From a virus (Duplodnaviria; Heunggongvirae; Uroviricota; Caudoviricetes): a stretch of 64,000 nt of DNA. The notes beneath the pieces are model-generated. The model saw only the letters and a program-made list of their open reading frames with translations. It searched no databases and was not told the origin of the DNA. Location of the stretch: the IMG/VR virus record IMGVR_UViG_2721755712_000001. One strand, 5' to 3'. A program made the translations under genes and the position numbers. The number at the start of each line of letters is the position of its first letter. The stretch's first letter is position 1. This document shows, one piece after another, positions 1,193 to 37,238 of this stretch.

Positions 1193-4100
1193 TTACTTAT
1201 TTATTGTCTCCGCGATATCAGCCAGAATGGCCTCCAGTCGCTCTCCTTCTTCCGGTCGGAAGTACAGGATATTCGGGTTAAATCCGTAGAAGACGGTTGC
1301 ATCAAGCTCTGGGAAGTACTCCTTACGACCAATCAGATCTGATGGTTTACTCTTATTGTTAAATAGTGCGGTTGAACGACTACCACACGTCAAAATGTAG
1401 GTTGGTCGTACAAGATTAATTTCTTCCCGCATAAAGTCTGTGAACTGGCCTATCTCGTCTTTGGTATAGTCTTTCTCTTTGTCCTTAACCTTCTTACAAA
1501 CACCCGTGACATAAAGATCGCCCATGCGCAGATCTCCAACTGTCAGTAGTTTTGCCTTAAAGTCGTCGTATCCGTTCTCCATGAAGTAGCCGGTACGAGC
1601 GTCATTGCCGTTCGCATTGTCCAGAATGATCATGATTTTGGGTTTAATACCAATAGTCGGGCGTATCAACTCCTCACCCAAGCCCATTTCAGCCGCCATA
1701 CGTGTCATGAGTACGTTGATTTCGGCAGAACGCTTAGGATTCATTTCGAACGGACGTGATGCTTTAACAGCGTCAATGATGAGATTGCCCATCAGCTCAG
1801 CCTGGTCGCGCAGTCGTTCAGGATCAGTTGCTGGCAGACTGCCTGGCTCAATTGACGCAAAAGCCCCTACTTTATGAAGCGACTCGCGTACACGACTGTT
1901 ACATGCACGCTTCTCGACCGCTTCATCGAATTGTGCCACTGACTCGAATTTGCCACCAACTTTCTCACGCGCACGCATAATTGCCTGACAACCATTTTCA
2001 GAACAGCCTTTCACAGCAGAGAATGGCGCATACAGTGCCTGACTGCCGTCTTCGAGTGTGCGGATCTCAATTCGGTTAGATGACACATTAACGTCTGGTG
2101 GCAATACGCGAATGCCATAGGTCAGCGCATCCTTCACCAGCCCCTGATGCTTATCCTCGCCCAGAATGGTGAGCGCAGCTGCGAAGAACTCAGCAGGGTA
2201 GTGCGTCTTTAGCCACATAGACTGATAACTGATTAAAGAATAAGCAACGGAGTGTGATTTATTGAACTGATAGGCTCCGTTTTTCTCAAATGCGGTCCAG
2301 ATCTCCTTCGCTTTCATCTCTGATAGCCCTGGATGTGACGCTGTAACGCGTACTGCGTTTATAGGTAGTTTTGCGCCGTGCTCAAGTGCCTCTTCGACAG
2401 TTTTCAGAGTTCCGTCTTCGCATTTAAAATGTTCCGCACGGTGAATGCGCTGTGTAGTGCCATCTTCCAGCTCAACGTCTATCCAGCCAGCTTGAGCCTG
2501 AACGATGAACTTCTCGCCCATGCTCTTCATTTTTTCCATGTTCTTCTTACCGATTGCGGAACGCACAGCGTCAGCTTCAGCCATTGTGAAGCCGGCAAGC
2601 AATCGAGTCGCGTTCATCGTCTGTTCCTGATAGAGAATCACGCCATTTGTTTCCGCGGTAAGTTCATCAAGAACGGGGTGTAATGATTCCGGCGTCATAA
2701 AGCCTTTGGCGACAGAAACATAGTCATCCAACATGCCTGATTGAATTGGCCCCGGCCGGAAGAGCGCAGTTGTAGCGACGACCGTTTTAAAGCTCATTGG
2801 CTCAATTCCACCACCTAAATCTTTAAGCAGCTTGCGCATTGGGCCTGATTCAAGCTGGAAAACACCTTGAGTGTACCCAGCAGCAAAACCATCCAGCACC
2901 TTGCGATCTTCAAGAGAAATGGCATCAAGATTGATATCTTCACCTGTGTTCTCTTTTATGTAGCGTTTTGCACTATCGAGCAAATCGAGAGTTGCCAGGC
3001 CAAGCACGTCCAGCTTAATTAGGCCCATAGCCTCGCAGTAACGCTTGTCAAATGCGATACAACGCGCGTCACCACGGCGCTCAACCGGTGTACGTTCTGT
3101 CAGAGGAACACCTGCTACGATCATCCCTGCCGCATGTCTACCAAAGCCACGCATAAGGCTTTGTAACTTGCAGGCTGCATTGAATGCATCAGGATATTTT
3201 GTTGCGTATTTGTCGAGACTTGCCAGTTGTTCGCGCAGCTCTTCCAATGGAAGGCTATCATCCTCGACGTTCTTCAGTTCTTTTGATACCGCCATATCTG
3301 CGGACTCCACACCATAAATACGAGCGGTATCACGTAGTGCAGAGGCTGCGCCCAGGTAGGTGAAGTTCGGAATACCCGCAACGTAATCTTCGCCGTAGCG
3401 TTCATTCAGATACTCGATCACCTCATGGCGACGTGCCTGGCTGAAGTCCAAGTCCGCATCCGGCAAGTCGAGACGCTCAGGGTTGATGAAACGCTCAAAC
3501 AGAAGACCGTGACGGATTGGGTCGACGTTGGTTATGCCTATGCACCACGCCACCAGAGAACCGGCAGAGGAACCACGACCAGGCCCAACGGGAATGCCAG
3601 TTTCACGACTATGATTCATCAGATCGCGTACCATCAGGAAGTAACCACAAAATCCCAGGCGAGTCAGCGTGTCCATTTCGTACTTTAGCCGCTCAACATA
3701 AACCCTGTTCTCAGAAGCAGGTGGTGTGTAGCCAAACTCTTTTGTGGTAAGACGTTTACGCAGCCCTGCAACAGCCAGTTTCATAAGCGTTGCAGGCTCG
3801 TCGTCTGCCATCTTTGGCAGTGCTGGCGGCAATTCATGCCAGCGCCATGTGCAGGCATCGATAATGGTATCCTGCGTTGTTGAGGCCATTGCAGCTGTTA
3901 CCGGCACATCCATGCGAACGGAGAAGGCTTTAAGCGCCTCAAGGAGATGGCGGCGACCATTGACGGCGTTATCTCGCTGGTGGGGGATACGCAGACGATG
4001 CGGCTGGTCGATTTTGATGTTGTTCGTAACCATGTGCGCAATGTCTTTAATGTCTGCATCGTCGATCGATTCGTAATAAGCGGGATAGAACGCCACTGGC

Positions 4101-6222: not shown

Positions 6223-8331
6223 TCACTTTAAAATGATACGAGATAGTTCAGTAACTACAGATGAACCAAGACTATCAACGCTCGTTACCAGGGCATGATT
6301 TGAGTAAAATCTCTCCGGTGCGTCAGTCATGATGCCAATTGCCATCAAATCAATGTCAGTCTGCGTTTCAATTTGCTTCGCAACCGAACGCAAATGAGCG
6401 TCAAAACCTCTCCCAACAGCCCACGGCTCGCCATCGCTCAGAACAAGCATGATCTTCCTGTCCTCCATGCGACCGGAAAATAACGATGCAAGGCTGGCTA
6501 TGCTTTCACCATCCACGTTATTAAGAAGTGGGAATGTGTAGCCTACGCACCCCATACGTGAGCGAACTTCGCGAGAATTTACCTTTTCATTCCAATTTTT
6601 GATGATAGGTAGCATTAAAGATTCAAAGCGAGAGAACTCATACTTGACAGCCTTAAGTTCTCCTGCCGCCATATGACTACCAAATGTAGTGAAGCCTGTG
6701 ATAATGTTGGGAACATTTATTCGATCAAGGGCATCGGCGATGGTATATGCACTTGCAAGAGCCAATTGTATCGTTATACCCCTCATTGAACCTGATAAAT
6801 CAATCACTTGTTGAACACAGGCGTTAACGGCTTTAGATTCTTCTTTTTTACGAAACACGCGATCATCATTCATTGCTAATCTGTAGATACTAGAACCATG
6901 AATGCGCCCCCGACGCTGGCCCGGTATAAACTGAACTCTGTTTCTGCTTGCTATTGCTCGCTCCAGGTCTTTTGCCAGCGTCGACGAAACACCTGACGAA
7001 AGATGCTTTTCAATATATTTGTCGAAGAGCTGGTTGCCTTCAGGAACGATGCGATAGCGGCTGATTGGACATCCTCCTAAATCAATATCGGAGAATGTTT
7101 TAATAAGCCGTTTGATATGGGCTTCTGCCTGATCAATCGAGCCGATGAAGTCGTATGAGCGATTGTATGGCCTGTATTCGCTTTTCGAGCTTTCTGTTAA
7201 CTCGCTTTTAATCGTTTCGGATAGAGCATCTTCTGTCATGCCTCCGACTTCATCTTCTATGCTATCCAGCTCCTCTAAAGCCTCTTCCAGACTCATTTTT
7301 GACGGAGTTGGGATATCTGAAGAGCCGTCTTCTGTCGTTTTTCTTTTTTCGTGGTCAGCGGTTAATGATTCTGACGCCGCGTTATCAGAAGCATCAGAAT
7401 CTGATACCTCTTTATCATTTTCTGTATCATCGAATATTGTTTCTGATGATTCAGATAATTCTGAATCATCACTGTTGTTATTATCATGTTTGTGCTTACT
7501 ATGTGATTCTGATTTGATAGATTTGTGGTTATCTAACGATGAAGATGTCTCATGATCTTCGTTGTCTTCATTGTTTTCTCCAGAGGCATCCGTCTGGTCA
7601 GCGTCTGAAGGATCGGAAGTTTTTCCCGGAGCTGACTCCTTACCATTGCTTTCACTTTCAGTGTCTTTGAGGATCTTAGCTATGGTCGCAGCCACCTTTA
7701 CACAATCCTCGGTGCAAGACATGTTACGCACGGCCACATCGATACCATGTTCTTTTAATAATGAAATTGGTTTCTCAATGACAGGCCAGTATTCATCCAT
7801 GAAATCTACGAACGGTGCTTGGCCATCCCAGGCTCTTACAACCGGACAGAGAAAGAAGTTTAGAAAAAGCGCGCGCTGATCTTTGCCACAATAAGCAATA
7901 GCCTCTGAAGCCTTTGGTTTAAAGACTTTTTCGATTATAAGGCGCTGAGTTGCCATCAGATTACGTCTTGTTCCGTTAAAGACCTGACCCATTTTTCGCT
8001 CGATGAACACGTCTTCTAAGGCATTCCATAGCGACCAGGAAGGAACGCGTCCTTTTTCTCTCATTTTGTTGGACACACGAATATCGGTAAACAAAATGTG
8101 AGCAACCTCATGATCGAGAAATCCGCGCACAGCATTCATCAATGCCGGTGTTGCGTTATCCGGGATTGATGGGATGTTTACGAGAATTGGCTCTCCATCA
8201 TCGTTATAGCGTACATAAGCGTCGTCCCCTCGTTCTGCAACAGGGATGTTTTTACCTGAAAGGAGAGCGACTACTCGTTTTACACTGTCACGGAAGTCCT
8301 GAACCTCTTTGATGGAACGTTTTTTAGACAT
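6223..8331 (-). CDS. CobT-like von Willebrand factor A protein with acidic Ser/Asp/Glu-rich linker
   Basis: C-terminal MIDAS-like motif VIDLSGSM; central low-complexity acidic region; N-terminal HEVAH (HExxH) motif. Confidence 0.6.
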   Translation of the reverse strand: MSKKRSIKEVQDFRDSVKRVVALLSGKNIPVAERGDDAYVRYNDDGEPILVNIPSIPDNATPALMNAVRGFLDHEVAHILFTDIRVSNKMREKGRVPSWSLWNALEDVFIERKMGQVFNGTRRNLMATQRLIIEKVFKPKASEAIAYCGKDQRALFLNFFLCPVVRAWDGQAPFVDFMDEYWPVIEKPISLLKEHGIDVAVRNMSCTEDCVKVAATIAKILKDTESESNGKESAPGKTSDPSDADQTDASGENNEDNEDHETSSSLDNHKSIKSESHSKHKHDNNNSDDSELSESSETIFDDTENDKEVSDSDASDNAASESLTADHEKRKTTEDGSSDIPTPSKMSLEEALEELDSIEDEVGGMTEDALSETIKSELTESSKSEYRPYNRSYDFIGSIDQAEAHIKRLIKTFSDIDLGGCPISRYRIVPEGNQLFDKYIEKHLSSGVSSTLAKDLERAIASRNRVQFIPGQRRGRIHGSSIYRLAMNDDRVFRKKEESKAVNACVQQVIDLSGSMRGITIQLALASAYTIADALDRINVPNIITGFTTFGSHMAAGELKAVKYEFSRFESLMLPIIKNWNEKVNSREVRSRMGCVGYTFPLLNNVDGESIASLASLFSGRMEDRKIMLVLSDGEPWAVGRGFDAHLRSVAKQIETQTDIDLMAIGIMTDAPERFYSNHALVTSVDSLGSSVVTELSRIILK

Positions 8332-8429
8332 GGCTAATCCTTTGTTATGAAAACAAATTATTTACTAGTGTGTTTAATGTAGCACTGCGCGAACAGGGAA
8401 CTAAGCCATTCGCGCAGGGAGAAGAGGGG

Positions 8430-8642
8430 TTAACAGATTCTGACGGCTAAAGACCCGGAGCCGGTATTGAGAAGCGTGAAGCGTTTGTTGTTAAGTTCGA
8501 ATATAAATCCAGTTGTGTCATTCACACCAACCTGAATCTGCTCATTCGGTAGATCGGTGAGGATGTCAGCTACACACTCATCAACTAATTTCTGTACGTG
8601 TCCGATCTCAAGAGCGATTAGGCTGGAAATAGTGGTGTTCAT
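8430..8642 (-). CDS. hypothetical small protein
   Basis: 70-aa ORF in an otherwise empty interval; no motif recognised. Confidence 0.25.
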   Translation of the reverse strand: MNTTISSLIALEIGHVQKLVDECVADILTDLPNEQIQVGVNDTTGFIFELNNKRFTLLNTGSGSLAVRIC

Positions 8643-12094: not shown

Positions 12095-13003
12095 ATGATT
12101 GGTAAGTTGTCTGATTCTTTGATTGAAAATAAATACAACGAATTTAGAGAAGAAATATCTTTACTTTTTGACTATTTAAATCAGATAAATGATACAACAA
12201 AGAAAAATATAAAACGTCTTCTTAAAGAAGTGGAGTATGCACAGAATCCAGATACTATTATTAATATTAATGAAACTATTAAGATTAAGTGTGGCACAAC
12301 GTTAGCTCGCCATTTATGTTCAAACCCATATACAGGTTCAACATTAGAGATAGGTAACAGCGCCATTGATTTAGAAGAAAAGATAAGATTGTGTAATACT
12401 TTGAAAAATAAACAATATCAGTGGGTTATTACTGAAGCCTATGAGTTACTGGAAGACTATATTGAGGCAATATATGTCTATACTGTATGTGTTCGAAATG
12501 ATTTATGGTCCTCAAGTGATTTTGGTAAGGTTGAAGATGATGAAATTGGGAAAAGGGAAGTTTATTACAGATTATTAAAAGCAAAAAGTAACCCATCGAA
12601 AAAAATAACTAAAATTTTCAGAAATAAAATACCTGGCTTCAAAGAGATAGAAACAAACAACAAGATTGGCAAAAACTATCGCTTTAACATCAAGCTAATT
12701 GAACTACTAAGACATACAATAGTACACAATAGTGGACGATTCAATGATACAGAAAAATTTATAAATAAGGTTTTAGATGAATCTGAAATAAACGGTAAGA
12801 AAAGAGTTATTGGAGAAAGAGCTGTTAGAAGTTACATTACTAAAGTGCAAGAAGATGATATTGTGATGCTCTTAGAAAGACCATCTGAAATTTTAGGTTC
12901 TTTTGGTGGGTATTTTAACAGAGCAAAATTTTTACTAAGTGATATTTTAGAATACTCACTAATCATTAAAGAAGAACTAAAATCATATCTAGGCAATCAT
13001 TAA
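12095..13003 (+). CDS. AT-rich hypothetical protein with HEPN-like R-x4-H motif (possible abortive-infection-type protein)
   Basis: 302 aa; strongly AT-rich and Lys/Asn/Ile-rich relative to neighbours; motif LLRHTIVHNSG (R-x4-H); own terminator. Confidence 0.3.
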   Translation: MIGKLSDSLIENKYNEFREEISLLFDYLNQINDTTKKNIKRLLKEVEYAQNPDTIININETIKIKCGTTLARHLCSNPYTGSTLEIGNSAIDLEEKIRLCNTLKNKQYQWVITEAYELLEDYIEAIYVYTVCVRNDLWSSSDFGKVEDDEIGKREVYYRLLKAKSNPSKKITKIFRNKIPGFKEIETNNKIGKNYRFNIKLIELLRHTIVHNSGRFNDTEKFINKVLDESEINGKKRVIGERAVRSYITKVQEDDIVMLLERPSEILGSFGGYFNRAKFLLSDILEYSLIIKEELKSYLGNH

Positions 13004-25930: not shown

Positions 25931-26200
25931 ATGTCAGCACTAAAAAAGCAGCGCATCGATTTGAGATTAACCGATGACGATAAAAGCATCATCGAGGAAG
26001 CTGCCGCAATGTCTAACCAGAGCATTACTCAGTTTATGGTTAGCAGTGCATCTGAACGTGCCGTGAAAGTTATAGAGCAACACCGTAGACTAGTTCTGAA
26101 TGAAGAATCCTGGAATCTGGTTATGGACGCTATAAGCAATCCTCCGGCACCGAACGACAAGCTGAAACGAGCTGCTGATCGTCTGAAAAGCATGGAGTAG
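25931..26200 (+). CDS. antitoxin, RHH/DUF1778-like (TacA-like)
   Basis: small protein immediately upstream of and coupled to a GNAT gene; start placed at internal Met MSALKKQRIDLRL; the track ORF begins at 25892. Confidence 0.6.
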   Translation: MSALKKQRIDLRLTDDDKSIIEEAAAMSNQSITQFMVSSASERAVKVIEQHRRLVLNEESWNLVMDAISNPPAPNDKLKRAADRLKSME

Positions 26201-26207
26201 TTTACTC

Positions 26208-26729
26208 GTGAGCAATACAACGATAGAGATTTTCTCTGGAGAGAAAGATTATGATCTAAACGGTTTTGATTGCGGCGAAGAGTCACTAAACGCCTTTTTA
26301 GCCAACCACTTAAAAAGGCAGCATGAGGGAAAAATTCTTCGTGCTTATGTGCTTTGCACTCAAGAAGAAAGGCCAAAAGTGTTAGGATATTACACTTTGT
26401 CAGGTAGTTGTTTTGAAAAGGAGTCCTTACCTTCAAGAAGCAAACAAAAGAAGGTTCCTTATCGGAATGTTCCAAGTGTCACTTTGGGTAGGCTGGCTTT
26501 GGACAAGTCCCTTCAAGGTCAAGGATTTGGCTCAATGCTTGTAACACATGCAATGCGCGTTGTGTACAATGCATCTCTTGCTGTAGGCATTCATGGGCTT
26601 TTCGTTGAGGCGTTAAATGACAAAGCCAAGGCGTTTTATAAAAGTTTAGGCTTTATCCAGCTGGTTGGTAACAACGAGCGTTCTTTGTTCTATCCTACAA
26701 AATCTATCGAAAAATTGTTCGAAGAATAA
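26208..26729 (+). CDS. GNAT-family acetyltransferase toxin (TacT-like)
   Basis: 173 aa; acetyl-CoA binding motif QGQGFGSMLV; 8 bp after the antitoxin gene. Confidence 0.65.
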   Translation: MSNTTIEIFSGEKDYDLNGFDCGEESLNAFLANHLKRQHEGKILRAYVLCTQEERPKVLGYYTLSGSCFEKESLPSRSKQKKVPYRNVPSVTLGRLALDKSLQGQGFGSMLVTHAMRVVYNASLAVGIHGLFVEALNDKAKAFYKSLGFIQLVGNNERSLFYPTKSIEKLFEE

Positions 26730-26761
26730 TGTGTTCCCCTCATTTGAGGGGAACTTCGACA

Positions 26762-26947
26762 TCACCAACCACAAACCCTCTCTCCCATCGTATTGTGAAA
26801 AAGGATTTGGCGTTCGGTTTCTTCAGTCATTACATCATTATTGCTGATATAGATAGGCTCAGCCCCATCGCAGAACAACACGCTGGCTGTTTGTGGTTTA
26901 ATGACGCACCCACTTATCATACAACTCACGATGAACGGCAGAAGCAT
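26762..26947 (-). CDS. putative o-spanin (Rz1-like outer-membrane lipoprotein), overlapping the i-spanin gene
   Basis: alternate-frame ORF starting inside the i-spanin gene; predicted start MLLPFIVSCMISGC with lipobox ISGC; short Cys-containing mature peptide. Confidence 0.45.
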   Translation of the reverse strand: MLLPFIVSCMISGCVIKPQTASVLFCDGAEPIYISNNDVMTEETERQILFHNTMGERVCGW

Positions 26948-27149
26948 CTTTCTGACGTATTTTACTGCTCGTCTCATTCACCACTTTCACTGTGTTTTGA
27001 AGTCGTTTTCTGTCTTCCTGTTTTGCCTTCTCTTCCATTGCTCGTCGCGCCGCATTCCCGCCCATCGTGTAAGCGCCGACAAGAACGAAAAGAACGGCAG
27101 CCAGCGTAATCAAAGCAACTTTTAGCTTTGTCATCAGGCTGCCTAGCAT
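26898..27149 (-). CDS. putative i-spanin (Rz-like type II membrane protein)
   Basis: 83 aa; N-terminal TM LKVALITLAAVLFVLVGAY followed by a charged coiled-coil-like periplasmic region. Confidence 0.5.
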   Translation of the reverse strand: MLGSLMTKLKVALITLAAVLFVLVGAYTMGGNAARRAMEEKAKQEDRKRLQNTVKVVNETSSKIRQKDASAVHRELYDKWVRH

Positions 27150-27150
27150 A

Positions 27151-27870
27151 TTAGACCATCCCTTTCTGGTGTTTTCTTACCTGCGACCAGGCAATGAATC
27201 CTGCCACAACAATAGTGGCAATACCGAAGATGATGCGTACTGTATCCCCGCTAGAGATATGACCTTGTGCTTTATCCATAGCAGCGGAAACCTGCGGCAT
27301 AACATCGGCCAGCTGCGCCAGACCAATACCTGCTGTAACAGTTGCGCCTGCGGTTTCTTTAGTTACAGGAACAGCCTTCACGGTTTTCACCGGCTTAACA
27401 ACGCCAGCTCGACGCAGACCTTCCTCAATAACTTCTGCCGCATACCAGGTGTTCAGCGTTTTTAGCGGGCCTCGGCCATTCTCGTGGCGAATGATTGCCT
27501 CAACCAAAGGTCGAAGGATGTCGTAATCATGCAGATCGATGATCATGTCTGCGGTTACACCAACGGCTTTAGACACCTCATTAATGTAGGCGTCAGTATT
27601 GTTTTCATTCGGCGGTGCCCAGCGTTCAATAACTTCACGAATGGTATCGATACTTGTGCCGTCTTTTGCGCGACGTTTGTCGTGGTAGGTAATTAGAGTC
27701 ACCGCCAGCGCACGAATCCCCCAAACAGGGTCTTTAAACGTGCAAAAGCGCGGTTCGTCTGGATTCGCAACCAGACCTTGCCACGGTGATCCTTTATCAA
27801 GATTACCGGGGTTATTATTACGAATGCCTCTCGGAGTCTTCATCCTTGATCTCCTGTTATTGCAGTCCAT
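27151..27870 (-). CDS. putative peptidoglycan hydrolase (endolysin candidate) with C-terminal TM segment
   Basis: 239 aa; lies between holin-like and spanin genes; conserved-looking GIRNNNPGNL motif; C-terminal hydrophobic helix IIFGIATIVVAGFIAW; enzymatic class not determined. Confidence 0.4.
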   Translation of the reverse strand: MDCNNRRSRMKTPRGIRNNNPGNLDKGSPWQGLVANPDEPRFCTFKDPVWGIRALAVTLITYHDKRRAKDGTSIDTIREVIERWAPPNENNTDAYINEVSKAVGVTADMIIDLHDYDILRPLVEAIIRHENGRGPLKTLNTWYAAEVIEEGLRRAGVVKPVKTVKAVPVTKETAGATVTAGIGLAQLADVMPQVSAAMDKAQGHISSGDTVRIIFGIATIVVAGFIAWSQVRKHQKGMV

Positions 27871-28192
27871 TTTTTACGCCATACGCGGCTAACCCCAAAA
27901 GCAGTGCAGTAATAATGAACGACGTTATTTTAGAAACAATGCCGCCAAAGAACCCACTGGAGATGGAATCTAACCGGTTAAGGAGTTTGTCCAGATTGGA
28001 GTGTTGAATACTATGTTGCGCCGGGGTCATATCACCAAAGTAGGTTTTCAGCTGATCATTGACCTCCTGGCCAATTTCTTCACGTAGCTCTTTACCTAAT
28101 TTACCAACAACCTCCCGAGCAACGATCGCGGCAATACGCTCAACTTGCTCTGTTGTAACGCCCGCCATCTCGTTCGACATGTTTTCCTCCAT
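27857..28192 (-). CDS. putative holin-like membrane protein
   Basis: 111 aa with a single C-terminal TM helix ITSFIITALLLGLAAYGV; overlaps the start of the endolysin candidate. Confidence 0.35.
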   Translation of the reverse strand: MEENMSNEMAGVTTEQVERIAAIVAREVVGKLGKELREEIGQEVNDQLKTYFGDMTPAQHSIQHSNLDKLLNRLDSISSGFFGGIVSKITSFIITALLLGLAAYGVKNGLQ

Positions 28193-28382
28193 GAAAAGTC
28201 AAATCGGGATGGCGGATTTATATCACATTTCACCCTTTTGTTGTAGGTGTGTACTTACCTATCTATGTATATACCGTTTAACGGCTGTTCAAATTCGTAT
28301 CTAGTAACTCACTAATATATCCCTATGATTGCGGCTGTGAGATCGCATTTTAAACCTCACAGCCATATAAATAATGTCTAAA

Positions 28383-31300
28383 TCAGTTACTTGTTGCCCC
28401 AACAGTACCGGCAAATTTCAGCCATTGACCTGACGGACTTCTATTACTGCGGTAGTGATAAACGAGGATTGCGTTTGTCACTCCACCGTAATCAGCTTTA
28501 TGTGACGTTGTTAAACGAATTGTATAATCACCGTTAGGTAGATTAAAAACTTCGATTATAGATTCTGCTAATTCTACAGCACCAAATCCCGTTATATTGT
28601 TGATACTGCCAGCATTGAATCCCATAGCATCGCCAAAGCCAATCCAATATCTTTTGCTAAACGCCCCATTTGATTTAAGGTGGCTAATGAATGTGGACAA
28701 ACTCATGCCCATATCCCCACCTGAAATAGAGGAAGTTCGCACAGTCATGCTTGGAAGAGCACTGCTCTTCACATAGGAACTTAGAAGATTCGTTACCTCT
28801 GTTTTCGTATAAGCATTAAGGTTAGCCGCAGTCAAAGTAATATCGGCAGAGCCATCAAACGCCACACCAGCAATTTTCCTTGCTGTCTGCAATTTTGTGG
28901 CGGTTGCTGCATTGCCAGTTGTATTCTGATTGCCAGTGGCATTCACACCAGGAATGGAGTCCCTTGATGTATATACCTGCGCCCACGCTGACCATGCCGC
29001 ATCTGTGGTATCTCTTCGTGAGCGAATGAAAACTGGCGCATGTGCACCGCTCGTACCACTCCAGCCAATAAGCAACTCGCCCTCACCAGCAGCACTCGCA
29101 CCTTTCATGTGCAATACGTTGCCATACGTGGTCGGGTAGCTAGTGCTGTACGCCTCGTACATTTGAATGCCAGCAGTGCCTTGAGTAGAGCCGCTTAACG
29201 CCGTAACTCGGCCACGAGATACCAATGTATTAATATTGATATCGCCTGAACCATCAAACTTAACACCATTGATGTTTCTCGCTGTTTGCAACTTCGTAGC
29301 AGTAGCCGCGTTGCCCGTTGTATTCTGATTACCTGCCGTATTTACACCAGGCAAATTTATGTTCGCAGATCCATCGAAGGCCACGCCGCCGATAGTTCTT
29401 GCAGTCTGCAATTTCGTTGCTGTAGCAGCATTTCCTGAAAGACTTGAAATAAATGGATGTGAACAGTAATAACCTCGTCCATTTTTAAAGTCCAAAATTA
29501 TCTGTGCATTCGTACTTTCTGATAAAGGATCAGTTGCCCCCCACTTATAAGTGGTTTGACCAACTGCATAATCAGCCGTTGGAACAATTACGTTCAAGCC
29601 CTCCTCAGCAAATATCTTGATAGGGAATGCTCTGGCTTCAACGTAAAATACACTACACAAATCGTCATCTTTCACACTTGAAATAATCGAGTGTATAGCT
29701 CGCTCAGCAGTAGAATATATTGAGAAAAAACCAGCCGCATATGAACCGCGATCAGACCAACCGCCAGGCATAACAAACCCATTAAATTCACAATTATTCA
29801 TGGCGTATCCGCCAACTGAGGAACCAGTAGTTATCACAACTCGTGAGGCTAATTCATCGGTACTGCCTCTAGATCGGCGAAAGACTATAGGATACCACTT
29901 ACCGCTTACTGCATTTGCAGGCGCTGAAAAAGTGTATTTTCTCATCCCTTTTTTATTGTCTATTTCGCTTTTGCTGTATACGTCAAGGTTCGCAGGAGTC
30001 AGCGTTATGTCCGCAGAACCATCAAACTTAACACCGTTGATTGTACGCGCTGTCTGTAGTTTTGTAGCGGTTGCAGCATTGCCGGTAGTGCTCTGATTAC
30101 CAGCCGTATTAACACCTGGCAAATTAATATTCGCAGTACCATCAAAGCTCACGCCGCCGATAGTTCTTGCCGTCTGAAGTTTTGTAGCAGTTGCAGCATT
30201 ACCAGTGGTGTTCTGATTACCCGTAGTATTTACACCTGGAAGGTTGATATTTGCAGAACCGTCGAAACCAACTCCACCGATAGATCTTGCCGTCTGCAAT
30301 TTCGTTGCTGTACTTGCATTACCATTTAATGTTCCGGTGATACCACCAGTAACAGACAACGGACCTGAAACTGTTCCTCCGGTTGTTGGCAGTGCTCCAA
30401 TATCTAACGGCGTCGGTTTCTGATGTGTGCTATACATCGTATAAACAACACCATCGGTAACGCTGGAAGGCTTACTCGCTGAATATGTTGGCGATGTATA
30501 AATAGAAACTGACGCATTTGCAGTACAATCCCAATGGATATTTACACTCGTCGCATAATTGCCAATTTCAACGTAAATATCATATGTATCGCCGGATGTG
30601 TTGATCCAGGCGAAATTCGCTAATCCGACAGCTGTACGCTTCCACAAAGCACCTGTAATTCCTTTGGGGTTTCCATTGCCTGCTCGTAGAACCAGTTCTG
30701 AAATGCCTGCCTGATGTGGGGAACCGACGTTGTAACCAGCGCCACCAATCAATGCGATGTAAACGATGGAACTCGCTTGTGGCATGGTAACCGTAGCCAG
30801 TTTGAACCACCCTGCCCCGCCAGAGAAAGACATCGTTACTGAATTTAAAGTACCAATATCTTTCGGCGTTAATGTGATATCCGCAGTCAGTGCTTTTCCG
30901 TTAACTTTTCGGTTAGATGGCACCCTGCTATTCGCATTGTCATTGGCTGCTTTAACTGCTTTTGGCGTTGCGGCCAGCGATTCACTGGTGCTGTCGACAG
31001 CACTGCTAAGTTTCACAACACCTTTAGTTGTAAGGCTTGCGTCTTCCATCGCAACTGCACCGGCAATCTCTTCAGCACGATCAGCAGCAGCTTCCGCACG
31101 GGTCGCAGCGGATTCAGCAGCAGTTTTGCTCTGAGATGCTGCCGTCGCACTGCCTGCCGCCTCTGTTGCTTTCGTGGATGCCGTCGTGGCGCTGCCCTTC
31201 GCTGCTGACGCCTGTCTGGTCGCCTCATCTTTTGAAGCAGACGCCGATGATGCCGATGACGCCGCCGAACTGGCGGACGATGCGGCTGCCGTTTTTGAGG

Positions 31301-32411
31301 ATTCTGCACGGTTTTCCGACGCTTTCGCGTTCGTTTCGGATGTCTTCGCTGCGGAAGCAGACCTCGCTGCTGCGCTGGCCTGTTCAGTGGCTTGGCCAGC
31401 CTTCGTTGTGGCTGTTGAAGCAGACGATGCGGCACTTTCTGCCGATTTTCCGGCGGCGGTGGCACTGGCTGAGGCCTGCCCGGCACTTGTTGACGCGGCA
31501 CTGGCAGACGACGCAGCCGCTGTTTTTGAGCCTGCCGCAGCCGAGGCGCTCTGTCCCGCTGCCGTTTCAGAAGACCTGGCGTTCGTCTCGGACGTTTTTG
31601 CCGCCTTCGCGGAATTTCCTGCCGCCGTTGCCGAGGAAGCGGCATTACTGGCGCTCGAGGCTGCGCTCGTTTCTGATGATTTCGCTGCCTCTTTTGAGGC
31701 CGCCGCATCCCGGGCTGAGGTGGCAGCTTCTGACGCCTTCGTGGTCGCGGTGGATGCAGAAGTGGCTGCAGATTTTTGTGACGCTGCAGCATTCGTTTCA
31801 GATTTTTTCGCAGCAGTTGCACTCGCACTTGCGGCACTTTGTGAGGATGCCGCAGCGGATGCACTTTGAGACGCTTGAGAGGCTTTTTCTCCAGCGGCAT
31901 TGGCGCTTTTTGCTGCTGCGGCAGCACTGGCCGCCGCCTCACGAGCTTTGTCGCCAGCAGCATCAATCGCGTCAGTGTTATTTTTATACCACTCAACGTT
32001 TTCGTTGTGCTCGTTGACGATCTGCATTAGCGGCTTAACGGTCACTTCTGTACCGTCTTCACGCTCGATTGTCACCTCATCCAGCGCAGTCAACCAACTG
32101 CGTATGGACTTGGAATCAGCCGACATACGCGACATTAGCGCAGTAAAGCGCGCGCTAAACTGTGTTAAGTCGCCTTCATAGGTCGTAATGATTCGGCACG
32201 GAACCTCAGACTGAGTTTCGCCGGTATAAGGTTCTGAGAGAACAATATTCGTATCGCTTATTACGCGCTTGATCTCGTACAGCTTATTGTCGGGGCCAAT
32301 GACGATCATCCCCGGCAACACACCATTAGCTGTTACGTTCCAGGCTGTCCCTGCCCCAACCAGAGTATTGCTACCCTGTGTAAATGTGATAGTACCTTCC
32401 CTGTACCACAT
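28383..32411 (-). CDS. tail fibre protein with Ala/Ser-rich region and repeated fibre motifs
   Basis: 1342 aa; about 300-aa Ala/Ser/Thr low-complexity tract; at least five copies of ...NTTGNAATATKLQTAR.IGGV.FDGSANINLPGVN... Confidence 0.8.
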   Translation of the reverse strand: MWYREGTITFTQGSNTLVGAGTAWNVTANGVLPGMIVIGPDNKLYEIKRVISDTNIVLSEPYTGETQSEVPCRIITTYEGDLTQFSARFTALMSRMSADSKSIRSWLTALDEVTIEREDGTEVTVKPLMQIVNEHNENVEWYKNNTDAIDAAGDKAREAAASAAAAAKSANAAGEKASQASQSASAAASSQSAASASATAAKKSETNAAASQKSAATSASTATTKASEAATSARDAAASKEAAKSSETSAASSASNAASSATAAGNSAKAAKTSETNARSSETAAGQSASAAAGSKTAAASSASAASTSAGQASASATAAGKSAESAASSASTATTKAGQATEQASAAARSASAAKTSETNAKASENRAESSKTAAASSASSAASSASSASASKDEATRQASAAKGSATTASTKATEAAGSATAASQSKTAAESAATRAEAAADRAEEIAGAVAMEDASLTTKGVVKLSSAVDSTSESLAATPKAVKAANDNANSRVPSNRKVNGKALTADITLTPKDIGTLNSVTMSFSGGAGWFKLATVTMPQASSIVYIALIGGAGYNVGSPHQAGISELVLRAGNGNPKGITGALWKRTAVGLANFAWINTSGDTYDIYVEIGNYATSVNIHWDCTANASVSIYTSPTYSASKPSSVTDGVVYTMYSTHQKPTPLDIGALPTTGGTVSGPLSVTGGITGTLNGNASTATKLQTARSIGGVGFDGSANINLPGVNTTGNQNTTGNAATATKLQTARTIGGVSFDGTANINLPGVNTAGNQSTTGNAATATKLQTARTINGVKFDGSADITLTPANLDVYSKSEIDNKKGMRKYTFSAPANAVSGKWYPIVFRRSRGSTDELASRVVITTGSSVGGYAMNNCEFNGFVMPGGWSDRGSYAAGFFSIYSTAERAIHSIISSVKDDDLCSVFYVEARAFPIKIFAEEGLNVIVPTADYAVGQTTYKWGATDPLSESTNAQIILDFKNGRGYYCSHPFISSLSGNAATATKLQTARTIGGVAFDGSANINLPGVNTAGNQNTTGNAATATKLQTARNINGVKFDGSGDININTLVSRGRVTALSGSTQGTAGIQMYEAYSTSYPTTYGNVLHMKGASAAGEGELLIGWSGTSGAHAPVFIRSRRDTTDAAWSAWAQVYTSRDSIPGVNATGNQNTTGNAATATKLQTARKIAGVAFDGSADITLTAANLNAYTKTEVTNLLSSYVKSSALPSMTVRTSSISGGDMGMSLSTFISHLKSNGAFSKRYWIGFGDAMGFNAGSINNITGFGAVELAESIIEVFNLPNGDYTIRLTTSHKADYGGVTNAILVYHYRSNRSPSGQWLKFAGTVGATSN

Positions 32412-32504
32412 GTTGAATATGCTCCTTGATTTGGCGGGCTATCCTTGCCCGCCATTAAGTAATTACTTACCTATTCTTACCGATATAAAATTTTTTTTCC
32501 ACCA

Positions 32505-35500
32505 TCACAGACGGCCAATTCTTACTCGTAAGACGTTGTTATCGTCATAAACGTCAATCCGCTGACCATTTATAACCAATCGCCCATTGCCGCCGCTATT
32601 ACCGTTGATCTCAAGCGTTCCATTTTTGCCGAACCGCCATCCAGATCTACCGCTAACAAAATTGGTAGATTGCAGATCGCCTACTTTTGCATTGGTGATT
32701 GTGCCATCCTTGATATACGCTCCATTCATATAGGCGATACTGTTTTCGATAACAAATGGCGTTGTGATCTTCCCGTTAACAGAGTTGACCAAACCAAACC
32801 TGTCCGCCTGAACCAAAAACTGAGATAGCCCAGTGGTGTCAATACCAAGCGCAATACCGGCAACATACTTCTGCCCTCCGCTCGTTGAAGTCTCCATTTT
32901 CAACGTCCACGCGGTTGATACTTTTTTGTTGGTATCAGCAATAGCTGTTGCCTGCTGTTGAATTGTCGCGGTATTTCCATCCACCTCTGCTTTCAGAGTA
33001 TCGATTCGCCCACTCAGAGCATTATCTGCCTGCGTTCTCGCTGTCGTTTCAGTTGTTACCGCCGCGGAAATGTTGGCTGCCGTTTGAGACTCTAAGTTTG
33101 TGATTTGAGTCGCCAGTGCCGCATCTTGCTCTGTACGCGTTTTCGTTTCGGTTGCTACAGCCGCTTTAATATCCTCTTTGTATTGAGAGGTCAGCTTGGT
33201 GATCTGAGACGACAACGCCGAGTCAGCATCAGTTCGAGCCTGCGTTTCAACTGCAACGGCCGCACTAATATCTTTCGCAGTCTGTGCTTTTAAACTTGAA
33301 ACCTCTTTTGTTAAAGCGGTATCACCATCTGCACGAGCCGTTGTTTCTCTGGCAAGAGATGCCTCAAGATCATTAGCTTTTGCTGTAAGAGACGTAATCT
33401 GAGTGGACAATGCACTATCGGCATCAGTCCTTGCTTTTGTCTCTACAGCAACCGCTGCGGCAATATCAGTTCCGGTTTGTGCTCGCAGGCTGTTAATTTC
33501 TCGTGAGAGCGCCTGGTCAGCACTTGCTCTGGCCTCCTGCTCCTGAGTGATGGCAGCGGATATATCACCGTCAACCTTTGACTGAAGCTGGTTTATTTGT
33601 TTGGCTAACGCAGAGTCCCCGCTTGCTCGGGCCTCCTGCTCACTACGTATTGCAGCAGAAATATCATCATCAACCTTTGCCTGAAGTTGGGTGATCTGGC
33701 TTGCCAGAGCCGAATCTTCCGTTGCTCGGGCTTCTTGCTCTTCCTTAATAGCTGCGACGATATCGTTGCTTACTTTCGACTCAAGCTGAGTGATCTGTGT
33801 CGTCAGAGCTTCATCGGCAGATGTACGAGCCTCCTGCTCTGTACTAATCGCCGCGCTGATATCTCCTTCAAACTTAGATTGCAGCTGAGTGACACGCTTT
33901 GCCAACGCTTCATCGCCATCGGCACGAGCGGTGGACTCTTCCAGAATACTGGCCTTAATGTCTTCGCCAATTTCTACGCGAATTTCCTCAACCTTCGTGG
34001 CCATTGCAGACATATCATCAGCAAAGGTTTTCTGTGTTGTTGCGATCTTCGCGTTATTGACCATCTGCTTGTGCTGGTCTTCATCTTGACGAAGAGCCAG
34101 GTCAATATTTGTTTTGGCCAACGCCTCAATGTTCGTAGTCAGTTCTGCACTGGCACGATCGACCTCTGCAACCGTCTTTTTCATTTCTTCAACGGCAGCG
34201 GAGCTTTCCTCTACCGTTGACTGCAACACTTCCAGTTGTTTAGCGTTTGCAGCATCGCCTTCAACACGAGCCTCGCTTTCCTTAGCAATAAGAGCCGCCG
34301 CTTCATCTCTTGCAGCCTTTATTGCCTCGACTGTATTAGCGAGAGCTTTATCGTGTTCAGATACGGTGTTTTCGATTTCAACAATTGCAGCATCAGTAGC
34401 ATCAATTTTTTCAAACGCTTCATTGACCTTGTCGATCGTTGCCGAAACCTCACCTTTAAGCTCGGTTTGTGCGTTCTCCAAAGCATCGCTACGCTCGTTG
34501 AATTTTATTTCAAAATCCGCGAGGTTATCGCTGAACTGCTTATCTAATTCAGCTATATCTTCCTTAACGTCGTTTACCGACCCCTCCAAAGATTCGACGC
34601 TCTGGTTGATATGCTCATTTAACTCGTCAACTGCTTCTTGAGAGGCTTTGCTGTTGATGTCCTCAAGCAGAGCCTGACCAAGCTCGGAAGATGTAATTTT
34701 GCCAGTCAGGAACGACAGTACATCGCGAGTTGTCGCCTCTGTACCCAAGTTTGAGTTCGGAGGACTTAACATACCTCGCTTGTTCGATGCTCGAACCCAG
34801 TAATACCACGTTTCGCTATCCCCAAGACCAGCATGTGTAAAGGTGGTGCTTGCAGACTCTGCGATCAGTTTCGCCGTATCCAGATTGTTGGTCTGGGATG
34901 CGTAAACATTAATGTGATCAAGGTCCACCGAATCTGGATTAACCCAATTCAGTATCACATTACGATAGTCTCCAACGGCCGTTAATGACGTTGGTGCATC
35001 CGGCGGTGTCATTGTGCCCAGCACCTGATAAACGGTACTGATAATTTCTGTTTTTTTACCGTTGAATGAAACCGCATACAGTTGGAAGTCGTAGCGTCCA
35101 TTCTCCGCGACATTAACGATTTCGTATTGCTCTTCGGTTACACGCGCCGATTGCCAGTTCGATACATTGTTTTCATCAGAACGTCGCCAACTGATCCAAT
35201 ACTCTGGAGATTTCCCTTCCCATGTTGCAGTCAGTTTTACTGACAGGTTGCCAGGGCTTGAGAGATAAGTCCCTTCGGTGATTTGCAAATTAGACGGCTT
35301 GGAGTAAGTCGGGTCCAATACCGTCGTATTTTGCGGGATAAGCGTTGCACCATTGTCGATCGCCTCATATTTAGACGGATTGTTCTCAACAGCGGTGATG
35401 TCAAAGCTACCCGGCGTTTCCCCCTGCGCGATGTTAACGATGCGAACGCGCATAGGTTCGAGGTCTGGTTCTGTAATAGTCCAGACGCCGTTCAAAACAG

Positions 35501-37238
35501 GCGTTTCAGCCGAAGACAGGGATTTTGAAAACGTAACTTTTGTTATATTTTCGCCAGTTTCAAGAACATCGCGTTCAACGATTTTGCCTTCCTGATTCAG
35601 TATTCGAATAAAGCAGCCGCCTTTGGCTAACGACACCGGCGCATCGAGTGTGACGCTGTTTTTGGTAAACGCCACAATTCGACCTGAGTTACGTTTGCCT
35701 GCGCGATATTTGTTCTGAATCAGAACGGTTTCACCAGGCATCAGAAATGACGCGTCTAAGCCGGCAGTAAATGTAATTACATCCGACTCCATTCTGGCGG
35801 TATATAAAAGCCACAAACCAACTCGGTGAGCCTGCCCTCGGCTTGTACAGCCAAATGCTACGACTTCTGTCTTACGCTCACCATAACGGCGCATTGCGTC
35901 CTGATCTTCAACGTACTCGATGTTTTGCTTATAACCGTCCTCCTTGTTGTTGTAGGTTACGAGCGCAACGGATGGGCGATCTTTACGCGCAGAACCTTTA
36001 TAGGTAAACAATCCATCTTTGACGTTAGAGTTGGTAAACATCATTACCGGATCTGATGGGCTATCCTGCATGATGTTAACCATCCCACCAGCCCAAAACA
36101 CCATGCCGCGGAATGCTCCAGCAATATCCTGAATTAGTCGGTATGCGTCCTGTCGACTGGTGATCTGCGTATTGATTGCAAAGCGTTTCTCTTTGCCACC
36201 AAAGCCATCATCGACCTCTTCGTCACAATATCGACCAATCTGGTACAACTGGCCAAGGTCAATCATAGATTCCGACACATACTGACCAAGGCCATATCGA
36301 GCATTGGTCAGCAAATCAAAGAGAATCCACGCGGGGTTCGAAGAAGACAACAGCTTAAAAGTGCCATCCCATACCCCAGCGTAAGTGTTACTGGACTCGT
36401 TATAGTTTGAAGGTACTCGAATTTTTAGGCCACGCACCAGATAAGAGCGAGATGGCATGGTGCTGCCGAATTGCTCAGAGTTTACCTTCAATCCAACTAA
36501 AACAGAGTTTGGATAGTTCATCGGTGTATCGACAATTTCCCCGATTGAATCCACCCATGTATCGTTATAGAGATACTGGCTACTGTTATCATCGGTAATA
36601 CGGACTACACGAACCTTGTATGCGCGTCCAGGCTTAGGCAGCTTCAGCTCGTAGCTACGGTAATAAACGCCGGTCTTCTTTGCTGTTAGCTTAATGCCAA
36701 CGCTTTTTTCACCTTCCGCGACCACATCTACAAATGTTGAGTCGCCATTTGCTATCTGGAACTTGTACTCAACAGTCGTACCGTTCGTGTCACCAGTTTT
36801 TTTATCTATGCTTCGCAAAGAAGGAAACTTCATGATGACACGAACCCGATCAGCTTCATCGTTATCGATTGAAACCGTTACATAATGTGTTTTTTTTAAC
36901 TGGATATTGACGGATTTAGGCGTTTCAACGAAATCAAAGCCAGACATTGGAGTTTGGTCTTGCGAACCGTCGCGAAAATCCCATGTGATTCCGCTGAAGT
37001 TGGAGGAACCGTCTTCATTTACAATCGGCAGATCGTCGATAAAAATAGATCTTGCGCCATTTACTAAGCCGCCAATTACCCCTTCCCCAAGAAGATCGAG
37101 GATAGCGGCCATTGCACGAGAATTTACGGTATCGTCGGCTTCAACCGGTGTACGGCTGGAGCTTTTGCTGCTTTTTTTACCACCCGCACCGGCAATAAAC
37201 AGCGGTAGCTTTTTCTTCTTGAACTGTTCCATGTTCAA
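32505..37238 (-). CDS. J: central tail fibre / host specificity protein, lambda J-like, with expanded coiled-coil repeat region
   Basis: 1577 aa; N-terminal and central regions share long motifs with lambda gpJ (VLVGLKVNSEQFGS, AFGCTSRGQAHRVGLWL); about 15 tandem copies of a roughly 33-aa heptad-like repeat before a J-like C-terminal domain. Confidence 0.9.
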   Translation of the reverse strand: MNMEQFKKKKLPLFIAGAGGKKSSKSSSRTPVEADDTVNSRAMAAILDLLGEGVIGGLVNGARSIFIDDLPIVNEDGSSNFSGITWDFRDGSQDQTPMSGFDFVETPKSVNIQLKKTHYVTVSIDNDEADRVRVIMKFPSLRSIDKKTGDTNGTTVEYKFQIANGDSTFVDVVAEGEKSVGIKLTAKKTGVYYRSYELKLPKPGRAYKVRVVRITDDNSSQYLYNDTWVDSIGEIVDTPMNYPNSVLVGLKVNSEQFGSTMPSRSYLVRGLKIRVPSNYNESSNTYAGVWDGTFKLLSSSNPAWILFDLLTNARYGLGQYVSESMIDLGQLYQIGRYCDEEVDDGFGGKEKRFAINTQITSRQDAYRLIQDIAGAFRGMVFWAGGMVNIMQDSPSDPVMMFTNSNVKDGLFTYKGSARKDRPSVALVTYNNKEDGYKQNIEYVEDQDAMRRYGERKTEVVAFGCTSRGQAHRVGLWLLYTARMESDVITFTAGLDASFLMPGETVLIQNKYRAGKRNSGRIVAFTKNSVTLDAPVSLAKGGCFIRILNQEGKIVERDVLETGENITKVTFSKSLSSAETPVLNGVWTITEPDLEPMRVRIVNIAQGETPGSFDITAVENNPSKYEAIDNGATLIPQNTTVLDPTYSKPSNLQITEGTYLSSPGNLSVKLTATWEGKSPEYWISWRRSDENNVSNWQSARVTEEQYEIVNVAENGRYDFQLYAVSFNGKKTEIISTVYQVLGTMTPPDAPTSLTAVGDYRNVILNWVNPDSVDLDHINVYASQTNNLDTAKLIAESASTTFTHAGLGDSETWYYWVRASNKRGMLSPPNSNLGTEATTRDVLSFLTGKITSSELGQALLEDINSKASQEAVDELNEHINQSVESLEGSVNDVKEDIAELDKQFSDNLADFEIKFNERSDALENAQTELKGEVSATIDKVNEAFEKIDATDAAIVEIENTVSEHDKALANTVEAIKAARDEAAALIAKESEARVEGDAANAKQLEVLQSTVEESSAAVEEMKKTVAEVDRASAELTTNIEALAKTNIDLALRQDEDQHKQMVNNAKIATTQKTFADDMSAMATKVEEIRVEIGEDIKASILEESTARADGDEALAKRVTQLQSKFEGDISAAISTEQEARTSADEALTTQITQLESKVSNDIVAAIKEEQEARATEDSALASQITQLQAKVDDDISAAIRSEQEARASGDSALAKQINQLQSKVDGDISAAITQEQEARASADQALSREINSLRAQTGTDIAAAVAVETKARTDADSALSTQITSLTAKANDLEASLARETTARADGDTALTKEVSSLKAQTAKDISAAVAVETQARTDADSALSSQITKLTSQYKEDIKAAVATETKTRTEQDAALATQITNLESQTAANISAAVTTETTARTQADNALSGRIDTLKAEVDGNTATIQQQATAIADTNKKVSTAWTLKMETSTSGGQKYVAGIALGIDTTGLSQFLVQADRFGLVNSVNGKITTPFVIENSIAYMNGAYIKDGTITNAKVGDLQSTNFVSGRSGWRFGKNGTLEINGNSGGNGRLVINGQRIDVYDDNNVLRVRIGRL

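Follow-up and report, generated by a model that had tools for sequence, protein, structure and literature searches.

In a 64,000-nt stretch of DNA from a tailed virus (Caudoviricetes; IMG/VR record IMGVR_UViG_2721755712_000001; hereafter, the window), the minus strand carries a tail fibre gene whose open reading frame (ORF) begins with ATG at position 32411, ends with TGA and encodes a protein of 1342 aa (Table 1). The protein matched PHROG tail-fibre families, and its gene has annotated full-length relatives, namely the "phage tail protein" gene of the E. coli plasmid pEC7518-111k (98% nt identity) and the gene annotated as "tail fiber protein" in Escherichia phage Cyrano (97%); the frame proposed in the initial annotation of this region was recovered exactly. 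Matches of near-full length (at least 80% coverage) occurred in 51 of the complete E. coli genomes, where the ones listed lie on plasmids of ~100–160 kb. A J-type tail-tip gene lies upstream, and holin, endolysin and Rz genes lie downstream, followed by a toxin–antitoxin pair and ParA. With an SSU5-type N-terminus and a position directly after the J-like tip gene, as expected for fibres of SSU5-like phage-plasmids of ~100–115 kb, the locus is, as judged from sequence, the tail fibre gene of an SSU5-like E. coli phage-plasmid, and the most fitting classification of its product is as a fibre of this phage-plasmid type that carries a lambdoid shaft. On the basis of the ORF and its homologies, the register of the heptads, the number of repeats, the clustering of breakpoints and codon statistics, we consider it very probable that the gene encodes a single trimeric mosaic fibre protein with a heptad shaft and with 40-aa repeats as joints, and that three large ORFs overlapping it are not genes.

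Table 1 Features of the tail fibre locus in the window.
Feature	Coordinates	Strand	Basis or remark
Tail fibre gene	28383..32411	-	ORF listing; full-length 97–98% homologues; PHROG tail-fibre families
Shine-Dalgarno AAGGAG	32422..32427	-	10 nt before ATG; read from sequence
N-terminal domain, aa 1–147, SSU5-type, presumed tail-attachment	31971..32411	-	74–78% nt identity to SSU5 fibre N-terminus
Ala/Ser heptad tract, aa 148–454	31050..31970	-	Heptad register; AlphaFold2 helix; lambda stf/stfR homology; TA-free DNA
PF03406 (Phage_fiber_2) motif, aa 459–499	30915..31037	-	Pfam E = 2e-19 on sub-sequence
Globular insertion 1, aa about 503–690, beta-rich	30342..30905	-	AlphaFold2 beta strands; conserved in lambdoid phi458
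Repeat block R1–R3, aa 697–816 (3 x 40 aa)	29964..30323	-	Regular expression, DNA repeats, alignment
Exchangeable module 2, aa 817–992	29436..29963	-	Different module in Cyrano and pMB3825A_2; phage HdSG1 has a 97% identical copy
Repeat block R4–R5, aa 993–1065	29217..29435	-	Regular expression, DNA repeats, alignment
Exchangeable module 3, aa 1066–1149	28965..29216	-	Replaced in Cyrano; 71% nt identity to SSU5
Repeat R6 with PGVNATGNQNT leader, aa 1150–1205	28797..28964	-	Regular expression, DNA repeats, alignment
C-terminal tip domain, aa 1206–1342	28386..28796	-	Mu S' match
Same-strand +1-frame ORF, 327 aa	31013..31996	-	Composition by-product
Antisense ORF, 326 aa	31037..32017	+	Open only through missing T-A codon junctions; probably not a gene
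Antisense ORF, 231 aa, wobble positions shared with the fibre frame	31174..31869	+	Composition-expected; not a gene

The long start is supported by comparison with gene 021 of Salmonella phage SSU5. Its MWYREGTITFTQGS N-terminus and its AAGGAG ribosome-binding site are both identical to those of the window fibre, and the true start is therefore at 32411. A hairpin (ggcgggc..gcccgcc, 32433–32453) lies just upstream of the Shine-Dalgarno sequence. Scans of the full-length 1342-aa protein against Pfam and NCBIfam gave no match, and scanning it in pieces recovered PF03406 as the sole Pfam match; the compositional bias of the tract described below most likely accounts for the miss at full length. 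The N-terminal domain itself (aa 1–147) had no Pfam or NCBIfam match, and its pLDDT (predicted local distance difference test) score in the AlphaFold2 model was below 50.

The tract that follows the N-terminal domain was previously described as an Ala/Ser-rich, low-complexity region at about 31000..31950. Its position was confirmed, since Ala, Ser and Thr together account for a fraction of 0.6 or more between about aa 150 and 450 (about 31050..31970), as was its richness in these residues (A120, S70 and T30 among 301 residues; 73% in total); however, the tract is not merely of low complexity but forms a strict, uninterrupted heptad array. Residue autocorrelation exhibited a peak at each multiple of 7 up to lag 56, and Fourier analysis gave peaks at periods of 7.0, 3.5 and 2.33. 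When the sequence was laid out in rows of seven residues, 44 consecutive heptads of the form S-A-(T/S)-A-A-x-x were found with zero register shifts, and the fourth position was Ala in 43 of 46 rows. The corresponding tracts in relatives are 307, 202, 335 and 230 residues long, and all of the differences are multiples of seven. An AlphaFold2 monomer model placed a helix at aa 146–459 (pLDDT 79–91), whose one break is probably the monomer folding back on itself, and a weak match to the shaft of T7 gp17 was also counted for a coiled coil. At the nucleotide level, positions 525–1478 of the gene share 87–95% identity with side-tail-fibre genes of lambdoid phages, 90% with K-12 stfR and 80% with lambda stf, and copies of the tract, roughly 6500 in all, are present in 4071 of 5426 complete E. 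coli genomes (75%). In a cryo-EM/ET study of Ur-lambda, Stf residues 102–393 were modelled as a trimeric proximal coiled coil. With its unbroken heptads, small or hydrophobic residues at the a and d positions and helical prediction, the tract is predicted to be a heptad coiled-coil rod; its trimeric state is suggested by analogy with lambda, and a helical shaft of aa 148–454 would be ~45 nm long.

The similarity of the gene to SSU5 covers nt 1–741, whereas the lambdoid similarity begins at nt 525; the junction between the lineages therefore lies inside the coiled coil, a few heptads past its start. The shaft from about aa 175 onward would thus have been acquired from the lambdoid Stf/StfR lineage via crossover within the coiled coil. 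Chi sites were considered as a basis for a role of the tract in recombination and were discarded, since the fibre gene contains none.

Large alternative frames on both strands of the tract had been noted in the initial annotation and attributed to its biased composition, and three such frames are present. In general, most stops cannot form in several frames because the tract contains no hydrophobic (xTx) codons and almost no TA. The composition argument holds for two of the three frames. The 327-aa same-strand frame remained open in every codon shuffle (100%): a stop in it requires a codon with T as the second base, and the tract contains none. The length of the 231-aa antisense frame was attained in 21% of shuffles. 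Homologues of this frame are found as lambda orf206b (J02459 20147..20767, complement; 63% aa identity), phi458 Orf45 (92%) and the RefSeq protein WP_156262519 of pNT1F31 (99%), and orf206b occupies the same wobble-sharing antisense frame; the stop positions of this frame shift between relatives, and both the start and the stop of orf206b differ from those of the window ORF.

The remaining frame, the 326-aa antisense ORF, requires near-total TA avoidance in addition to biased composition. It contains no stop, against 10.1 ± 2.5 expected when synonymous codons were permuted with the protein fixed (0/5000 permutations without a stop) and 10.5 ± 2.4 when permutation was confined to codons of the same heptad position (0/5000). 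It is open because T-A codon junctions, in which a codon ending in T precedes one starting with A, are almost wholly avoided. The same frame carries two stops each in phi458 and ev099 and eleven in SSU5, and the ev099 record annotates a frame of this type as the hypothetical protein VUF53544. Substitutions relative to lambdoid copies fall mainly at third positions of the fibre frame (15/11/33 and 21/15/54 for the first, second and third positions), and among the frames only that of 1342 aa shows protein-level constraint. The 326-aa frame is probably a by-product rather than a gene, and the earlier view that none of the three overlapping ORFs is likely to be a gene is very probably correct, as far as their sequences and those of their relatives indicate.

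Only 1 T-A junction was observed in the tract against 13–17 expected. Four-fold degenerate codons that precede a codon starting with A end in G, C, A and T 23, 20, 16 and 0 times, respectively, whereas T-ending codons were used in 30 of 104 cases before codons starting with G. The TA odds ratio of the tract is the lowest in the window (rho(TA) of 0.12 in segments of 900 nt, against a median of 0.72), and the symmetrised value was 0.03 in the tract, 0.89 in the rest of the gene and 0.60 in the coiled coil of the J-type gene. Avoidance is also exhibited by relatives, with 2 observed versus 9.1 expected in lambda, 3 versus 18.4 in phi458 and 6 versus 16.6 in ev099, and the more diverged tract of SSU5 itself shows weak depletion (11 versus 20.2). 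Where AGT, CGT, GAT or AAT precedes A, a context in which no antisense stop can arise, 1 junction was observed against about 6.5 expected. The avoidance of TA is real and statistically robust, and it is not specific to stop-forming contexts.

Other candidate origins of this depletion were considered and discarded. Descent of the tract from a TA-free 21-nt unit was rejected, since the depletion persists when codons are permuted within heptad position and third positions are otherwise well mixed. Nor does the depletion reflect a bias of the whole genome, as other long ORFs of the window have observed-to-expected ratios of about 0.5–1.1, or of coiled coils in general, as the J coiled coil shows 49 observed against 58 expected. 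A general avoidance of nnUAnn codon pairs is known. That the absence of TA over 0.9 kb is actively maintained by selection for a function at the nucleic-acid level, beyond such ordinary codon-pair bias, appears unlikely to us; candidate functions would be the keeping open of an antisense frame for an overlapping gene, the shielding of this part of the long late mRNA from UA-directed cleavage, or the exclusion of -10-like elements from either strand.

The distal half of the fibre contains a repeat of the form GNAATATKLQTAR.I.GV.FDGS..I.L, of which five copies had previously been counted; a regular-expression search and repeat alignment revealed six, starting at aa 697, 737 and 777, at aa 993 and 1033, and at aa 1166. 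The period is 40 aa (120 nt), and 19 of the 40 columns are invariant. The corresponding DNA repeats, placed near 28850..29450 and 29950..30300 in the initial annotation, were found, in agreement with it, at 28802–28952, 29201–29435 and 29969–30323 with 64–80% identity, far beyond chance, and Tandem Repeats Finder (TRF) reported a 120-nt period with 2.3 copies at 30052–30324. A three-repeat segment had no Pfam match at E values up to 1 and no NCBIfam match, and PF03406 does not identify the repeats, since this model matches aa 459–499 only. A possible seventh, degenerate half-repeat at aa 489–513 (VNGKALTADITLTPKDIG) was not supported, because hhalign comparison of the repeat profile with aa 455–532 gave a probability of 4%.

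A profile built from the six units matched the C-terminal stalk of the phage L decoration protein Dec (residues 97–133, ANAETADKLSTARTI...FDGSANVTI; E = 8e-5) and the PhiM1 fibre gp47. A match of a wider profile to a T4 gp34 structure in the PDB came via columns from modules of relatives and was not counted for the fibre; no direct match of the window fibre to T4 gp34 was found. In a library of 1.84 billion representative proteins, the repeat profile hit 17,548 clusters (E ≤ 1e-3; representatives clustered at 50% identity), and a single protein carried as many as 18 copies. Searching the literature for the motif string of the repeat returned nothing of relevance.

Comparison of the gene with its relatives revealed that similarity often begins or ends at these repeats. 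Similarity to three relatives stops at fibre nt 3427–3443, just ahead of R6. In Cyrano, 98% identity holds as far as R3 and resumes shortly ahead of R6, the part between being another module of the same length; in pMB3825A_2, the stretch from R3 to R5 is all that differs from the window fibre. Exactly one unit of 120 nt is missing from the B-1109 plasmid, which, like the pNT1F31 fibre, departs from the window fibre immediately ahead of R6. Chromosomal prophage stf genes have sequence in common with the window fibre up to R2, and phage HdSG1 shares only module 2 and R4. Overall, the distal half contains 40 distinct end-points of similarity, 29 of them within repeats, which make up 35% of that half (binomial P = 1.6e-6 if end-points are taken as independent). 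Between 4 and 7 repeat copies are present in close relatives, with spacings shifting in 40-aa steps, and the repeats retain 75–80% nt identity even between otherwise unrelated fibres. Because breakpoints cluster in the repeats, these sequences would be conserved joints flanking exchangeable modules. Their high DNA conservation may allow homologous recombination to swap modules and to gain or lose units, and exchange at the joints would diversify host range. Experiments have shown that stf segments can be exchanged through homologous recombination. The initial annotation proposed the repeats as candidate receptor-binding shuffling units; the repeats themselves are not the likely binders, and the tip is the better candidate.

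The order of parts suggests a mosaic in which an SSU5-type attachment domain leads into a coiled-coil shaft, a PF03406 motif, three globular modules and an S'-related tip, the modules being set apart by blocks of three, two and one copies of the 40-aa repeat, which may themselves form beta-structured, possibly beta-helical, shaft segments. The PF03406 motif matches residues 105–156 of Mu S (PDB 5yvq, 8ju3). The first globular module (aa ~503–690) was the only part of the C-terminal AlphaFold2 model with pLDDT values of 55–75, and it was modelled as beta strands throughout. In the C-terminal domain, aa 1230–1321 match Mu S' (PDB 8ju3, residues 215–304; independent E-value 5e-7), and tblastn revealed 36–39% identity to the Sv'/Sv parts of Mu, D108, P1, P7 and D6. 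By this resemblance to Mu and P1 S', the tip domain is likely to be the receptor-binding end.

No tfa- or U-type chaperone gene was found downstream of the fibre gene; the next gene is the holin, across a 190-nt gap (28193..28382) devoid of ORFs. This spacer contains a hairpin, ggctgtgag...ctcacagcc (about 28333–28364), that is not followed by a T-run. In sister alleles, by contrast, the product terminates in a Peptidase_S74 chaperone domain or a gene for a gp38-like adhesin comes next.

Comparison with known fibres showed that each component has a known counterpart and that near-identical sequences are already annotated, so that the fibre gene itself is already known. Lambda Stf (in Ur-lambda) and StfR of the K-12 Rac prophage share with the window fibre a homologous Ala/Ser heptad coiled coil followed by the PF03406 motif, and in many chromosomal stf genes the next domain, up to R2, is shared as well. 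However, Stf and StfR begin with a PF08400 collar, whereas aa 1–150 of the window fibre are SSU5-type with no Pfam match; the distal halves also differ, and the window fibre has neither a gp37-like His-rich tip nor a following tfa gene. The absence of the PF08400 collar and of tfa places it outside canonical Stf. The relative P0003, by comparison, has a lambda-type MAVKISGVLKDG N-terminus and carries PF08400. SSU5 gp021 occupies the same position after J and has the N-terminus and Shine-Dalgarno sequence in common with the window fibre, but it has its own more diverged heptad tract, only two repeat copies and a separate downstream adhesin gene. The Cyrano fibre differs in the module between R3 and R6. 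In the S and S' proteins of Mu, D108, P1 and P7, the constant part of Mu S matches aa 451–502 of the window fibre and the variable S' matches aa 1230–1321; the S'-type domain is internal in Mu S' but is the extreme C-terminus here, and no U/U' gene follows. A Mu/P1-like invertible segment was also considered. Inverted repeats of at least 18 nt were absent from 26000–33000 except for one small palindrome, and the gene order held no second S'/U' set, so this arrangement was rejected; an invertase gene was not searched for. The window fibre thus combines the PF03406 motif of Mu/P1 S with a domain of the S' variable part, and it differs from the Mu/P1 S type by having no invertible segment and no U. 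Phage L Dec carries a single copy of the repeat on a capsid protein (PDB 6e3c), as against six in the window fibre.

Alternative explanations concern the antisense frames, the tract and the repeats. If the 326-aa or the 231-aa antisense ORF were a real overlapping gene, avoidance of TA would amount to selection for its openness. The excess of openness of the 326-aa frame over codon-permuted sequences favours this idea, as does its openness over the entire tract in lambda and in each of the six SSU5-like copies from E. coli, and both antisense frames are annotated as coding sequences (CDS) in some public records. Among the T-A junctions of relatives, 2 of 7 distinct positions create antisense stops versus 63% expected, which is only a hint (P about 0.07, calculated by hand). 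However, avoidance extends to contexts unable to form an antisense stop, stops interrupt the frame in phi458, ev099 and SSU5, and the ends of the ORF vary among relatives. No promoter-like site was found on the + strand for the 326-aa ORF, the translated products of the antisense ORFs resemble antisense noise, and the orf206b-type frame is fully accounted for by composition. In a CRISPR interference (CRISPRi) map of lambda, knock-down of orf206b caused no defect in plaque formation (efficiency of plating, EOP, about 4), and the gene was scored as non-essential. An antisense gene is thus very unlikely in our judgement. A second alternative, in which the Ala/Ser tract would be a low-complexity linker, flexible and disordered, instead of a structured rod, draws on its composition, on the absence of any Pfam domain and on the fact that small-residue cores are unusual in coiled coils; moreover, the AlphaFold2 run was performed on a monomer and shows helicity, not oligomerisation. 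Such a linker would hardly be expected to hold a perfect register over 44 heptads or to change in length among relatives only by multiples of seven, the helix is predicted with high confidence, and in cryo-ET of lambda a trimeric coiled coil was fitted to the homologous segment. We regard a disordered linker as very unlikely.

Another alternative is that the 40-aa repeats are themselves receptor-binding determinants, whose copy number and sequence would alter host range directly. Duplication of small adhesin motifs expands the host range of T4, and copy number differs among close relatives here. On the other hand, conservation in the distal half is highest in the repeats, also across otherwise unrelated fibres; the variable parts are the modules between them and the C-terminal domain, and the occurrence of the motif in the stalk of a capsid decoration protein argues for a structural role. 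Direct binding by the repeats therefore seems improbable, and we retain the interpretation of a single trimeric mosaic fibre with repeat joints and without genes in the overlapping frames. Several observations weigh against this interpretation. The AlphaFold2 monomer of aa 445–1342, built on a 40-sequence alignment, had a mean pLDDT of 35, and the folds of the modules and repeats are deduced rather than modelled with confidence; the Dec stalk structure to which the repeats are compared is itself a homology model only. Mu and P1 S' require a chaperone, yet no gene of the Tfa/U type comes after the fibre gene. The similarity end-points are not independent events, and BLAST tends to extend into any conserved repeat. 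The phase of substitutions cannot exclude the wobble-sharing antisense frame, since this frame and the fibre frame have their third positions in common. Finally, the openness of the 326-aa frame is not accounted for by composition.

Outside the fibre gene, the J-type tail-tip gene (32505..37238, minus strand, 1577 aa) encodes FNIII-A_GpJ, Phage-tail_3, fn3 and C-terminal Phage_Tail_Tip domains, together with an insertion of ~600 aa (about 33000..34900) made of ~33-aa repeats (DISAAI..EQEAR...D.AL..QI.QLQSKV), in which TRF found a 99-nt period at 33523–33740 and which suggests a long coiled coil in the central fibre. In pEC7518-111k, the closest relative, the J gene is disrupted by copies of IS1203 (IS3 family; locus positions 7400–8613 and 1–588), whereas the window J gene is intact; the pEC7518-111k phage-plasmid is probably tail-defective. 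A 302-aa ORF at 12095..13003 (+) lies in an island of 29% GC in a window of ~47% GC, on the strand opposite to its neighbours. It had no Pfam or PADLOC match and is an AT-rich accessory gene of the phage-plasmid.

The consequences of these results are mainly for annotation, since the locus is biologically ordinary and exemplifies textbook mosaic evolution of tail fibres. The heptad tract misleads gene callers. Of the 120 public protein clusters closest to the fibre, only 28 begin at the true ATG (MWYREG), whereas 38 begin at M455 (MEDASL), just after the heptad tract; the others start at M93, at M119 or elsewhere. Antisense "hypothetical protein" CDS within the tract occur in the records of RefSeq pNT1F31-113kb, phi458, ev099 and lambda, and such CDS have been deposited from lambda orf206b in 1982 through recent RefSeq records. 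The 40-aa repeat is very common (about 17,500 clusters), yet neither Pfam nor NCBIfam has a model for it; a new curated family could be built around this candidate, which may be of use. The TA-free coiled-coil module provides a clean, unexplained case of context-dependent synonymous constraint. If selection does maintain it, this constraint would be a widespread and so far unrecognised feature of a classic lambda gene, in a module carried by about 75% of E. coli genomes.

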